From the sequence record OM386658.1: 64,000 nucleotides of DNA. One strand, written 5' to 3'. The notes beneath the pieces were generated by a model. The model was not told the DNA's origin. It ran no database searches and saw only the letters and a program-made list of their open reading frames with translations. The stretch is from Escherichia phage vB_EcoM_ESCO32. The position numbers were made by a program, and so were the translations under genes. Below, piece after piece: positions 39,152 through 42,090 of this stretch (its first letter is position 1; every line of letters begins with the position of its first letter).

Positions 39152-39176
39152 CAAAGGGGCGAAAGCCCCTTTTATA
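39152..39176 (+). terminator. rho-independent terminator, GGGGC-GAAA-GCCCC hairpin plus T-tract
   Basis: Second copy of the repeated tetraloop hairpin. Confidence 0.6.
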
Positions 39177-39188
39177 AGGAGTGCAAAC

Positions 39189-39941
39189 ATGGGAAATAAA
39201 ACCGCAAAGGCTCGTCGTCAATCAGCAGCCAATGATGACAAACGTGCCAGTCGTTATGCGGCTAAAGCAGTAGGAAATGATGATTACCGTCTTGATGAAT
39301 TTACCCCTGTTGGGAATCAAGAAGCTATTGTAAGAAGCATGGTTTGGAATGATTTAACCATTGTTAACGCCCCAGCAGGAACAGGAAAAACGACAACAGC
39401 ACTATGGAAAGCATTGCAAATGCTTAAAGCTGGTGATTTCAGAAAGTTGATTTTCCTTAAAAACCCGACAGAAGTAGGTGATGACCAGATTGGTTTCTTA
39501 TCTGGAGATAAAACTGATAAACTAGCAGCACACTACGAATCAACTAAACGAATTTTCCAACAGTTTATGACTGCAAATAAATTGGAAAACGATATTGCAA
39601 GTGGCAAAATTGAACTTAATATTCCAAACTATGCACTAGGTGCTACGTGGGATAACAGCATTATTCTTATTGATGAAGTTCAACTTATGTCACCAAACAC
39701 AGTAAAACTTCTTCTTGAGCGAGCAGGTCTTAATACACGAATTGTCATTATGGGCGATGTTAATCAAACATATGCAATTAAACGAAGAGCTAACGGGTTA
39801 GGTGATTTGTTAGATCGTGTTGTTCCTATTAACGAAGAAGGAGAAAGGGAAGCTATTGTAGATTTTATTGGTTATGTTGAAATGACAACTGCTGATAACC
39901 AACGTTCCCGTTTGTCTCAGTTCATCACGGAAGTATATTAA
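39189..39941 (+). CDS. PhoH-like ATPase
   Basis: Walker A NAPAGTGKTT, downstream LIDEVQ Walker B-like block. Confidence 0.8.
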   Translation: MGNKTAKARRQSAANDDKRASRYAAKAVGNDDYRLDEFTPVGNQEAIVRSMVWNDLTIVNAPAGTGKTTTALWKALQMLKAGDFRKLIFLKNPTEVGDDQIGFLSGDKTDKLAAHYESTKRIFQQFMTANKLENDIASGKIELNIPNYALGATWDNSIILIDEVQLMSPNTVKLLLERAGLNTRIVIMGDVNQTYAIKRRANGLGDLLDRVVPINEEGEREAIVDFIGYVEMTTADNQRSRLSQFITEVY

Positions 39942-39977
39942 TAATTACAAGGCAAGGATGCCTGTTATGGAGGTTAA

Positions 39978-40472
39978 ATGACGCTAATTGAGATTGATCG
40001 CAATGGTATTGATGAATGCTATCAAGCTGGCTTAGTTAAGCCGAATGAGTTTAGACAGATTTATATTGACAAGATTGAAAAAGAGATATCTCTTCGTTTA
40101 GAGAACATGACAACTTTGCAAAAAGTTCAGATGTTTTTTAGTTGGTTAAAAGGCGAGGATTGGCTAACTAAATATTACCAGGAATTATCTGATAGTCAAG
40201 AAGGCTTGTTTGAGTGTATAATAAATATAGCTGGGTCTAATTCAGAATTACTCCTGATTGATGAAGAAGATTCTAAACTTCTTTTTCTTAGCAGTATCTT
40301 TCACAAGAAATCTATGTTAGTAAGAAATTGCAGTGATTTACTAAATCATCCACTAACAAGAACTAATAAAATTCTTGTGGATAAAGAAACACTAAGAGCT
40401 ATTGATTACCTCCGTAAATATGTAAGCGGTGGTAAAGCAGTCCTTAAAACACTACAGGAGGAAGTACAATGA
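39978..40472 (+). CDS. hypothetical protein
   Basis: ORF track; stop overlaps start of HslV-like gene. Confidence 0.35.
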   Translation: MTLIEIDRNGIDECYQAGLVKPNEFRQIYIDKIEKEISLRLENMTTLQKVQMFFSWLKGEDWLTKYYQELSDSQEGLFECIINIAGSNSELLLIDEEDSKLLFLSSIFHKKSMLVRNCSDLLNHPLTRTNKILVDKETLRAIDYLRKYVSGGKAVLKTLQEEVQ

Positions 40473-41122
40473 CAACAATTATTGCAACACATAACAAAAT
40501 TCTATCTGATGGTAAAGTAACAGTAGGTAATCGAGTAGACACTTTAAATTTCAAGAAAGTGCGTAAAATTGGGGATTACCTTGTTGGTGGTGCAGGACGT
40601 CTGTCTTCTATCCTGACTTTCTTTTCTTGGTTCGAACAAAACTTACAGTGCCAGGCAGCACAAGAGACAATCCCAGGTTTGGTGATCCAGTCAGATCCTG
40701 ATAAAGAAGATGAAGAGTTTGTGGCATTAGTTGTTCACCCAGACGGTAAAATTTATATGCACGAGGGTAACAATCCAACGCGAGCATATCCTTTAACTGA
40801 AGATTATTATGCTGTTGGTAGTGGGGCAGATTTTGCTTTAGCAGCTTTAGACGCTGGGGCAACCCCAGAAGAAGCGATGGAAGTTGCAAAACTGCGAGAT
40901 GCTTTTTCAGGCGGTGAAACTTTTATCGAAGAGATCGAAGAACAACTGGAGTTAACAGCGGAAGATATTCTGAACTTCAGCAAGGAGCAACTAATTAGTA
41001 TGCTGTTGACTGGTGATCCTGATAGTGATGAAGCTGAAAGTATTTTAGCAGAAATGAAAGAATCACAAGAAAAAGTATTGACAGTCTCTGAAAAACTTGA
41101 TAAAGTGTCCTCTGATAATTAA
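40469..41122 (+). CDS. HslV-like proteasome-type Ntn hydrolase with acidic C-terminal extension
   Basis: N-terminus MTTIIAT...GNRVD...KKVRKIG...GGAG parallels HslV Thr1 nucleophile, Lys33 and GxxG segments. Confidence 0.5.
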   Translation: MTTIIATHNKILSDGKVTVGNRVDTLNFKKVRKIGDYLVGGAGRLSSILTFFSWFEQNLQCQAAQETIPGLVIQSDPDKEDEEFVALVVHPDGKIYMHEGNNPTRAYPLTEDYYAVGSGADFALAALDAGATPEEAMEVAKLRDAFSGGETFIEEIEEQLELTAEDILNFSKEQLISMLLTGDPDSDEAESILAEMKESQEKVLTVSEKLDKVSSDN

Positions 41123-41130
41123 TCTAGTAT

Positions 41131-41153
41131 AAACCCCCGCAAGGGGGTTATTA
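41131..41153 (+). terminator. stem-loop (CCCCC-GCAA-GGGGG) plus weak T-tract
   Basis: Hairpin after HslV-like gene. Confidence 0.4.
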
Positions 41154-41162
41154 GGAGGAGAT

Positions 41163-41591
41163 ATGTTACCAGTACCTGTAATCTTTGTAGAAAAAGCCTA
41201 CTACTCTTTAGAACAAAATTGTAAAAGAGCTAAAAATTTTATTGAAAGTTTAGCAGAACAGCGTTACACTGTATCTAAAAAGGGATGGTTCAGAACTTCA
41301 CAATATTTAGTCAACCCTTTCGGAGAAGTTCGTGTGTTGTATGGCAACACAGAAAATATCTTAGAAAGAATGTTAGAACTAGACAGGATCTCCTCCTGTG
41401 ATTATCAACTGTTGAAATTTTACGATGTGTCAGAAAACGTTAAAAACTTTCTTGATGACTTATGTAAACGAAAAACAGAAGAAGATACAATACCAGTATC
41501 TATGGAAGAATTAACGTTCTTAAGAGATATTATGGTTTTTGAAGAAAACCCTGAAATCACAAAAGAGGAGATTTTAAGTAGTGGCAAATAA
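41163..41591 (+). CDS. hypothetical protein
   Basis: ORF track; RBS AGGAGG. Confidence 0.35.
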   Translation: MLPVPVIFVEKAYYSLEQNCKRAKNFIESLAEQRYTVSKKGWFRTSQYLVNPFGEVRVLYGNTENILERMLELDRISSCDYQLLKFYDVSENVKNFLDDLCKRKTEEDTIPVSMEELTFLRDIMVFEENPEITKEEILSSGK

Positions 41592-42090
41592 GTATGATCG
41601 TCCACCAACTGATTACTATCCTACTCCACAAAAATGTATAAATGCATTATTTAGTGTAATAGATTTTAATAACCTTAAAGAAGAAGGTTTTATTTTTGCA
41701 GAACCGTGTAAAGGCGCTGCTGCTGCAATTTATCAACATTTTCCAGAAGGATCAGAATATTGTGAGTTAGAAGAAGGGAAGGATTATTTTAACCACGAAT
41801 GGCATACTAAGCCGGATATTATAATCACAAATCCACCATTCAGACTTGCACTTGAGTTCTTGCAAAAGAGCTTAAAAGAAGCAGACGTTTGCATATACTT
41901 GTTGCGTCTTGGGTTCCTAGAGTCTATTAAACGAAGGGAATTCCATAAACAGAATCCACCAACAAATTTGATTGTTCTTTCTGAACGACCATCTTTTGTT
42001 GCAGGTGGTACTGATAAGACAGCATATGCTTGGTACGTCTACGACCCAAAAAACAGGCTGGGTTTAACTCAACCTTTCTATTTTGTTTAA
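41581..42090 (+). CDS. small amino-methyltransferase (DNA N6-adenine or N4-cytosine MTase, putative)
   Basis: DYYPTP near N-terminus, EPCKGAAAA (SAM-binding-like), IITNPPF catalytic (D/N)PP(Y/F) motif. Confidence 0.55.
   Translation: MANKYDRPPTDYYPTPQKCINALFSVIDFNNLKEEGFIFAEPCKGAAAAIYQHFPEGSEYCELEEGKDYFNHEWHTKPDIIITNPPFRLALEFLQKSLKEADVCIYLLRLGFLESIKRREFHKQNPPTNLIVLSERPSFVAGGTDKTAYAWYVYDPKNRLGLTQPFYFV

Follow-up and report, generated by a model that had tools for sequence, protein, structure and literature searches.

gp058 of a phi92-type Escherichia phage, a predicted long-form proteasome-type threonine peptidase lacking helix H2 and a phage-encoded HslU

The 64,000-nucleotide stretch of Escherichia phage vB_EcoM_ESCO32 (OM386658.1) analysed here, referred to throughout as the window, carries on its plus strand, at 40469..41122, a gene for a long-form PPH-type member of the proteasome/HslV family, gp058. 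On balance the analysis favours an active PPH-type N-terminal nucleophile (Ntn) threonine peptidase that probably forms rings, serves an accessory function independent of HslU, and is expressed together with gp059 and a PhoH-like protein encoded upstream. The window is 98.5-99.1% identical in DNA sequence to E. coli phages of the genus Justusliebigvirus, phi92 among them, and gp058 corresponds to Phi92_gp058 (99% identical). The protein and its kind are already known and already annotated: the original record of Phi92_gp058 has carried the note 'putative 20S proteaseome' since 2012, RefSeq names it 'peptidase HslV family' (PHROG 1040), the same name is used for PHB05, alia, ESCO13, qdvp001 and others, and further records of homologues read 'putative 20S proteasome', 'putative proteasome component' or 'ATP-dependent protease'. 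A tblastn search detected homologues in 166 phage records, at least 95% identical within Justusliebigvirus, 70-79% identical in Phapecoctavirus and related Klebsiella and Pseudomonas phages, and 32-40% identical in Vibrio, Aeromonas and Shewanella myoviruses.

Fold and active site of gp058

The initial annotation, read from the letters of the window, described this open reading frame as an HslV-like peptidase encoded without HslU, with the N-terminus MTTIIATHNKILSDGKVTVGNRVD followed further on by KKVRKIG...GGAG. Frame, length (217 residues plus stop) and N-terminus match the window exactly. An AGGAGG ribosome-binding site lies at 40456..40461 on the same strand, 7 nt 5' of the ATG, and one is annotated at the same place in phi92. 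Assignment of the gene to the proteasome/HslV family draws on the open reading frame list, PHROG, Pfam, structure prediction and Foldseek.

gp058 matches the PHROG 1040 profile with E = 2.4e-62 (212 bits; residues 1-212 on positions 14-214 of 277) and passes the threshold of the Pfam Proteasome model PF00227 by a small margin (24.4 bits against a cut-off of 22.4, E = 2.5e-5), with several of its homologues falling just under that cut-off. Comparison by sequence with solved HslV structures gave E-values of 2e-7 to 6e-6, and BLASTP against E. coli HslV gave 29% identity with E = 3e-10, a resemblance at the sequence level that is far beyond chance. A single-chain AlphaFold2 (AF2) model, built from a 51-sequence alignment, shows a proteasome-beta/HslV fold with a mean predicted local distance difference test score (pLDDT) of 90.3 and a predicted template modelling score (pTM) of 0.74. 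Foldseek comparison of the model with the PDB returned HslV/ClpQ, archaeal and eukaryotic 20S beta subunits and BPH at probability 1.00, with E-values of 1e-8 to 1e-10 and TM(target) values of 0.55-0.69. As modelled, gp058 is a protein of proteasome-type Ntn fold, as the initial annotation had anticipated.

AF2 secondary structure, alignments and counts over 263 homologues delimit a protease core of residues 1-155 (40469..40933, plus strand). It comprises strands S1-S11 (residues 3-6, 10-14, 17-19, 22-25, 31-34, 37-42, 85-89, 95-99, 106-109, 114-117 and 151-155), a long helix H1 (45-67), and helices H3 (120-128) and H4 (133-143). Invariant alignment columns within the core include the catalytic and structural residues D14, K30, R32, G40, G43, G117-S118-G119 and D144.

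Alignment with E. coli HslV superimposes a complete set of active-site residues. T2 and T3 (codons at 40472..40477, plus strand) fall on HslV Thr1 and Thr2, with T2 as the N-terminal nucleophile after removal of Met and T3 as its neighbour. D14-G15 correspond to Asp17-Gly18, predicted to orient the catalytic Lys as described for BPH; K30 corresponds to the catalytic Lys33, R32 to the conserved Arg35, and G40 to the oxyanion-hole Gly45. G117-S118-G119 align with the Ser124 turn and, again with the role known from BPH, would form hydrogen bonds to Thr1. All these residues, together with A42 and G43, are invariant in the close family and common to E. coli HslV, so that the Lys33 equivalent and the Gly-rich loop named in the initial annotation are borne out.

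Conservation of the site extends across the 263 homologues. Thr serves as nucleophile in 242 of them and Ser in 5, the remainder being mostly truncated fragments, which fits the proposal that Thr1 is exposed once Met is removed; the Asp is kept in 256, the Lys in 258 and the oxyanion Gly in 231. The protein starts with MTT in 222 of the 263, like E. coli HslV, and a propeptide is absent. Methionine aminopeptidase tolerates Thr at P1'. That Thr1, Asp, Lys and the GSG turn persist at identities as low as about 30%, short forms of the family included, suggests that selection acts on catalysis, and gp058 is most likely a catalytically competent N-terminal-threonine peptidase, as predicted from these alignments.

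Missing helix H2, pore charge and the relation to HslU

Kinship with HslV does not amount to orthology. gp058 scored 34.5 and 32.2 bits on the NCBIfam HslV equivalog models NF003964 and TIGR03692 and failed both cut-offs (137 and 157.75), whereas E. coli HslV scored 302.4 and 288.3 bits. Helix H2 is absent from the model, in which H1 (45-67) and the strand at 85-89 are separated only by coil. This acidic coil, residues 68-84 (IPGLVIQSDPDKEDEEF; 40670..40720, plus strand; pLDDT 74-86, net charge -5), aligns with HslV residues 75-91 (A75-L91) and replaces both H2 and the basic pore motif. Each of the 39 long-form relatives analysed has a loop charge between -2 and -6. In short forms the segment shrinks to 5-11 residues.

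Two sets of HslV residues involved in the response to HslU fall in the altered segment. HslV Ala79 and Lys80 contribute to the pocket that receives the HslU C-terminal tail (PMC6429459), and their positions sit in the coil in gp058. HslV R86, R89 and K90 form a basic cluster at the pore entrance that responds to HslU binding (PMC5777263); the alignment places K79, E82 and E83 at these positions, R89 and K90 thus being replaced by E82 and E83. Elsewhere the tail pocket is partly kept, with HslV F57 corresponding to the invariant F52, F60 to F55 and P115 to P108, and partly changed, with F54 replaced by L49 and Q114 by Y107. gp058 is not an HslV orthologue, and the description 'HslV-like' stands for the fold and the active site but not in the sense relevant to HslU. 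Since orthology is lacking and an ATPase partner is not evident, the labels 'HslV family' and 'ATP-dependent protease subunit' overstate what is known of the protein. By its acidic pore loop gp058 resembles the ATPase-independent HslV descendant BPH, of which such a loop is the hallmark, and this speaks against dependence on HslU.

The observation that no HslU-like ATPase is encoded nearby holds for the window and for a complete phi92-type genome, in which a tblastn search with E. coli HslU at E <= 10 returned only a 15-residue noise match; the annotation tables agree. Among the matches listed, phage HslU homologues come mostly from jumbo phages of Erwinia and Salmonella, from Prevotella phages, from unclassified entries named 'Bacteriophage sp.' and from probable bacterial contaminants, and Justusliebigvirus does not occur in the 40 records given. 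As a separate observation, gp116 of the Erwinia jumbo phage RAY (locus L036, 2998-4707) is an HslU-like ATPase of the kind found in jumbo phages of Erwinia and Salmonella. The 3 kb to each side of it contain no HslV-like gene, and two downstream 179-residue open reading frames are unrelated to HslV or gp058. In RAY, the only jumbo phage inspected, an HslU-like gene without HslV forms the reciprocal orphan to gp058 without HslU.

Two ways in which gp058 could engage host HslU were considered. In the first, which we judge unlikely, gp058 rings would dock on host HslU or on another AAA+ protein (ClpX, ClpA) and redirect ATP-dependent degradation to substrates chosen by the phage. The shared HslV active site and N-terminal MTTI, the part of the hydrophobic tail pocket that is kept (F52, F55 and P108) and the lack of an unfoldase of the phage's own would suit such a hybrid protease. 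So would the host range: the known long-form hosts, Escherichia, Klebsiella, Vibrio, Aeromonas and Shewanella, are without exception gamma-proteobacteria with HslUV. It is opposed by the loss of H2 with the pocket residues A79/K80, by the alignment of Q114 with a Tyr, by the conversion of the HslU-responsive cluster to K79/E82/E83, by failure of both equivalog models by more than 100 bits, and by BPH, another HslV descendant, for which pull-downs recovered no HslU (PMC5777263).

The second, proposed in the initial annotation, is a decoy or inhibitor that titrates host HslU without productive proteolysis, thereby stabilising HslUV substrates or shielding phage proteins. Nothing speaks for it beyond a general resemblance to HslV and the absent phage HslU. 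The structural points raised against a hybrid protease apply equally, and the catalytic residues, superfluous in a decoy, are nevertheless kept to 30% identity across the 263 homologues; of all the alternatives weighed here, we find this one the hardest to credit. Failure of the equivalog models, the missing H2 and the acidic pore cluster make both the decoy and the hybrid protease less likely.

Loss of H2 also bears on whether the Ntn site serves proteolysis at all. The site might instead ligate or transpeptidate peptides, in the manner of connectase, or hydrolyse a non-protein amide. The proteasome family does contain a monomeric ligase, connectase (PMC8665760), BPH is inert on protease substrates, and a structure without H2 is possibly incompatible with classical ring packing. 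However, the hallmarks of connectase, a two-helix insertion between S3 and S4 and the joint loss of H1 and H2, are absent from gp058, which keeps a long H1 and has no insertion between S3 (17-19) and S4 (22-25), and its closest matches in sequence and fold are bona fide proteases. A function other than proteolysis is accordingly regarded as very unlikely.

Beyond the core, gp058 carries an extension of 62 residues (156-217, net charge -12) that is absent from HslV. It had been described as an acidic tail; the acidity is confirmed, and the segment proves to be more than a plain tail, with helices at 164-169, 172-181 and 188-216 in the AF2 model and a conserved motif. The motif, LT-x-ED...(S/T)K(E/K)(Q/E)L(I/L), lies in residues 156-186 (40934..41026, plus strand), which form two short helices according to model and alignments, and is kept not only in E. 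coli phages but also in the Vibrio, Aeromonas and marine relatives. A strict pattern picks it up in 96 of the 140 long forms, 12 of the 40 mid-length forms and 1 of the 83 short forms. The terminal acidic helix (residues 187-217; 41027..41119, plus strand) evolves fast and keeps its composition but not its sequence: in comparison with ESCO13, 129 of 155 residues are identical in the core, 15 of 31 (48%) in the motif segment and 5 of 31 in the terminal segment. Post-core charge ranges from net -6 to -27 in homologues of 200 residues or more, and the region is acidic in all long forms. In the PPH/RPC family the C-termini are directed off the presumed ring, where they could mediate interactions (PMC8665760), and by analogy the gp058 extension would face outward as a potential docking site.

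Other long-form homologues show C-terminal features of their own. No Pfam domain was found in the further segments of the longer homologues (260-380 residues), and matches there to PHROG 2130 were weak. A module of about 35 residues, for example LKRYADLLGVKFPHNIGQETLAQKL, is common to the far C-termini of Vibrio, Aeromonas and marine homologues (loci L005 5700-5828, L006 5750-5882 and L007 5670-5798; protein P0074) and has no counterpart in gp058. From its sequence and the weak PHROG 2130 match it looks like a nucleic-acid-binding helix-extended-helix element of SAP, HeH or Rho-N type. The long forms P0061 and P0069 contain Cys-rich, zinc-ribbon-like insertions and share the ending ...ILKWRLHNA.

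Gene context and dispensability

The gene directly upstream, gp059 (39978..40472, plus strand), encodes a 164-residue all-alpha orphan (PHROG 14834) that is kept between the PhoH-like gene and the peptidase gene in the nearer clade. The overlap between its end and the start of gp058, already noted in the initial annotation, is an ATGA junction in which the gp058 ATG overlaps the gp059 TGA, an arrangement typical of translational coupling. Upstream of gp059 lies gp060 (39189..39941, plus strand), a PhoH-like P-loop ATPase (Pfam PhoH, E = 1.4e-35) with a basic N-terminal extension.

A PhoH-like gene was found 0-2.7 kb upstream of the peptidase gene, on the same strand, in 14 of the 14 long-form contexts examined, overlapping it by 4 nt in contig L009 and directly adjoining it in L017 and in Shewanella phage 1/40; none was found near the two short forms examined. 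In some contexts a transposase or HNH homing endonuclease gene separates the two, and in several long-form lineages no gene at all lies between them. The backbone of the long-form phages is syntenic (ribonucleotide reductase, glutaredoxin, lysozyme, PhoH, peptidase, ligase or methylase, serine recombinase, DprA), and the constant linkage to PhoH is probably due to inherited synteny. Because the whole backbone is syntenic, mobile genes intervene and PhoH is an ATPase of RNA-helicase type, the linkage was given modest weight. Eleven aligned PhoH-like proteins encoded beside long forms share a basic, low-complexity N-terminal extension of about 40 residues (net charge between +3 and +9), in which the element (K/G)(R/K)N(R/K)xKV recurs (39189-39320 in the window; L005-L010 and L016-L019).

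A natural variant bears on the function of this gene group. Phage VEcB (MT932211.1; locus L023, 2165-2968) carries a 1,122-bp deletion relative to about 39533-40654 of the window, with 8 bp of microhomology at the junction. The product is an in-frame fusion of PhoH residues 1-114 with residues 63-217 of gp058. VEcB is left without most of the PhoH ATPase (its C-terminal half), all of gp059 and gp058 residues 1-62, including Thr1, Asp14 and Lys30. Unless it is an assembly artefact, the deletion implies that the three-gene cassette is not needed for propagation. The cassette thus appears dispensable, with VEcB as a natural knock-out. Phages of Vequintavirinae type, with which many backbone genes are common according to notes on phi92, are absent among the peptidase matches listed; together with the VEcB deletion, this fits an accessory role.

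A prohead-maturation protease was considered and rejected, since some 35 kb separate gp058 from the head genes of a phi92-type genome, and since the gene goes unmentioned in the phi92 virion structure paper and is deleted in the viable VEcB. Separately, a short PPH-type protein, P0262 (137 residues; L014 6001-6414 and L015 1935-2348), is encoded inside the head-morphogenesis module of metagenomic phage contigs, flanked by a Mu-like portal protein, a 684-residue protein, a cement protein and a 317-residue putative capsid protein. P0262 occupies the usual place of a prohead protease, and some PPHs may be capsid-maturation proteases of an undescribed type.

Linkage and deletion together raise the possibility that the long-form peptidase works with the upstream PhoH-like ATPase, with gp059 as adaptor where present; contact would be made by docking of the peptidase C-terminal motif on the ATPase, or by binding or threading of the basic PhoH N-terminus by the acidic peptidase. 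The proposal gains from the presence of PhoH in every long-form context examined, from the specificity of the motif to long forms (the two short forms examined have neither motif nor nearby PhoH), from the opposite charges of the PhoH N-terminus and the peptidase loop and tail, from the extent of the single VEcB deletion, which takes out exactly the C-terminal half of PhoH, gp059 and the N-terminus of gp058, and from reports of PhoH domains as hexameric helicases (PMC7390352). On the other hand, the adjacency is most simply inherited with the syntenic backbone, genes for homing endonucleases and transposases can intervene, phages without the peptidase very commonly encode PhoH, and PhoH is an RNA helicase of superfamily 1 type, not a protein unfoldase. 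We regard such coupling as rather improbable. Slightly more doubtful again is the full version, in which peptidase, hexameric PhoH-like ATPase and, where present, gp059 constitute one machine, a novel pairing of a proteasome-type with a non-AAA+ helicase-type ring. If true, the peptidase C-terminal motif and acidic surfaces would engage the basic PhoH extension, and host RNA-protein complexes would be remodelled or defence proteins destroyed early in infection.

Other candidate partners were tried and rejected. A single partner gene conserved directly upstream in all lineages was not found, the intervening genes belonging to different PHROGs or to mobile elements, and a hidden Markov model of the gp059 family detected none of the middle genes of the Vibrio and Aeromonas phages (E > 0.2). 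The AAA ATPases of phi92-type phages (PHB05 gp184 and gp214), considered as unfoldases, are PHROG 2376 paralogues of clamp-loader/DnaC-like type that lie outside the window and are widespread in Gram-positive myoviruses without the peptidase. PADLOC gave no match linking the region to defence or anti-defence systems.

Aeromonas phage 2L372D carries two tandem PHROG-1040 genes, gp210 (L006 4432-4983) and gp211 (L006 5001-5885). gp210 encodes 183 residues, starts MTC, lacks the C-terminal motif and the 17-residue acidic loop, and has an insertion after H1 in the alignment; it scores higher against E. coli HslV than against gp058. gp211 is a 294-residue long form. From their sequences, the pair could represent a two-subunit particle or a recent duplication. 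The idea drawn from these genes, that gp059 is a diverged alpha-like second proteasome subunit, was rejected, as its model is confidently all-alpha and matched no known fold.

A pathway for the favoured HslU-independent peptidase can be proposed. Host methionine aminopeptidase would strip Met1 and expose Thr as the nucleophile, with no propeptide to be removed, in an active site of proteasome type completed by Asp14/Lys30, the Gly40 oxyanion hole and Ser118. Judging from HslV and BPH, the subunits probably form a self-compartmentalising ring, its entrance lined by the acidic loop and its C-terminal extensions pointing outward for docking of partners or substrates. Such a ring would most likely need no HslU, and its substrates would be polypeptides that are unfolded or intrinsically disordered and plausibly basic. 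The protein would be made together with PhoH and gp059 from an early/middle block of nucleotide-metabolism and replication genes, and its role would be accessory fitness, in host takeover or counter-defence, and neither that of an essential protein nor that of a virion-maturation protease.

Several points weigh against this proposal. All known long-form phage hosts are gamma-proteobacteria with HslUV, so that use of host HslU is conceivable, and part of the HslU-tail pocket persists (HslV F57 as the invariant F52, F54 as L49; pocket as defined in PMC6429459). BPH, the closest studied ATPase-independent relative, was inert on standard substrates in vitro (PMC5777263), so conserved residues do not guarantee stand-alone activity. 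The VEcB deletion is possibly an assembly artefact or a laboratory-passage mutation, and a literature search found no experiments on any member of the phage-borne PPH-type lineage.

The surroundings of the cassette show further features. The gaps 3' of the lysozyme, PhoH and gp058 genes contain short, perfect, G+C-rich hairpins at 39153-39172, 39950-39963 and 41134-41146. The last, CCCCC-GCA-AGGGG, begins 12 nt past the gp058 stop, ahead of the ribosome-binding site of the next gene, and its plus-strand T-run is weak; termination or RNA stability are its possible functions. A scan called all three terminator-like on the minus strand only, although the genes here all lie on the plus strand, and judging from sequence they may act in RNA stability or processing, or as weak terminators. 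Downstream, gp057 (41163-41591, 142 residues, PHROG 15078) is an orphan with homologues seen in Stephanstirmvirinae relatives only, and a small DNA methyltransferase gene (41581-42090) begins within it, with an overlap of 11 nt.

Comparison with known proteasome homologues

Fuchs, Alva and Lupas catalogued 22 new proteasome homologues in 2021, among which only PPH and RPC lack helix H2; no co-occurring AAA+ interactor was found for these and their function is unknown (PMC8665760). PPHs, with WP_042125023.1 as representative, are compact proteins of about 140 residues that lack C-terminal elements; they come from tailed phages and prophages, and Mesorhizobium and Pseudoalteromonas carry them on the chromosome. 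RPCs, with WP_140207863 as representative, are reported from Proteobacteria only and not from phages, and are more divergent, with a PPH-like core without H2 and a C-terminal extension of unknown fold (PMC8665760). Apart from this catalogue, a literature search returned genome announcements only and no subsequent experiments on these proteins, and gp058 goes unmentioned in the 2026 phi92 virion structure paper and in a 2025 paper on Stephanstirmvirinae genomics.

An exhaustive phmmer search of 1.84 billion representatives returned 2,024 matches at E <= 1e-3. After the long forms came many proteins of 130-155 residues at 55-75 bits, compared with about 30 bits for true HslVs. These relatives are located on phage contigs, have MTTI, the GSG turn and D-x-x-SGG in common, possess a still shorter link between H1 and S7, and end directly after the core. 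A narrow GTDB scan detected chromosomal relatives of gp058 in Pseudaminobacter (163 residues) and, as a partial sequence, in Mesorhizobium. On the basis of the missing H2, the failure of the HslV models by more than 100 bits, the nearest relatives of 130-155 residues in phages and the copies in the Mesorhizobium group, gp058 is placed in the PPH/RPC lineage as a 'long form', set against PPH and RPC by their published descriptions.

Phage-borne proteasome-type peptidases have been catalogued, but none has been characterised as to ring state, need for an unfoldase, or targets. gp058 is a convenient entry point, because phi92 and related coliphages are easy to grow and serve in therapy research, and the H2 loss, acidic entrance loop, C-terminal motif, PhoH linkage, coupled orphan gp059 and natural deletion variant offer testable handles.

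Among known systems, PHROG 1040 is the family in which gp058 is already filed, and no difference separates the two, apart from a name that overstates the kinship with HslV. HslV itself has the same fold, the N-terminus MTTI and equivalents of the active-site residues at Thr1, Asp17, Lys33, Arg35, Gly45 and Ser124; gp058 differs in lacking H2 and a cognate HslU, in its acidic replacement of the basic pore cluster, in the additional extension, in three residues fewer in the S1-S2 hairpin region, and in failing the equivalog cut-offs. BPH is likewise an HslV descendant without partner ATPase or propeptide and with a strongly acidic pore loop (PMC5777263), and is recovered by Foldseek with E = 3e-9. 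Unlike gp058, BPH keeps H2, has a longer pore loop and no C-terminal extension, forms heptameric double rings and is a bacterial protein linked to stress operons, and its TM-score to gp058 in the Foldseek comparison is 0.46-0.49, against 0.53-0.55 for HslV. RPC shares the architecture of a PPH-like core without H2 followed by a C-terminal extension facing off the presumed ring, whereas the gp058 clade is phage-borne, RPCs are reported from Proteobacteria only and described as more divergent, and gp058 still matches HslV directly at E of about 1e-7. Like PPH, gp058 is a group-I proteasome homologue of tailed phages with a Thr1/Asp/Lys/Gly site and no propeptide, without H2 and without an AAA+ partner in its neighbourhood; its short phage relatives fit the PPH description, and its relatives in Mesorhizobium-group bacteria are chromosomal, as reported for PPH. 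gp058 departs from PPH in its length of 217 residues against about 140, in an acidic loop of 17 residues against 5-11, and in a 62-residue extension with its own conserved motif.

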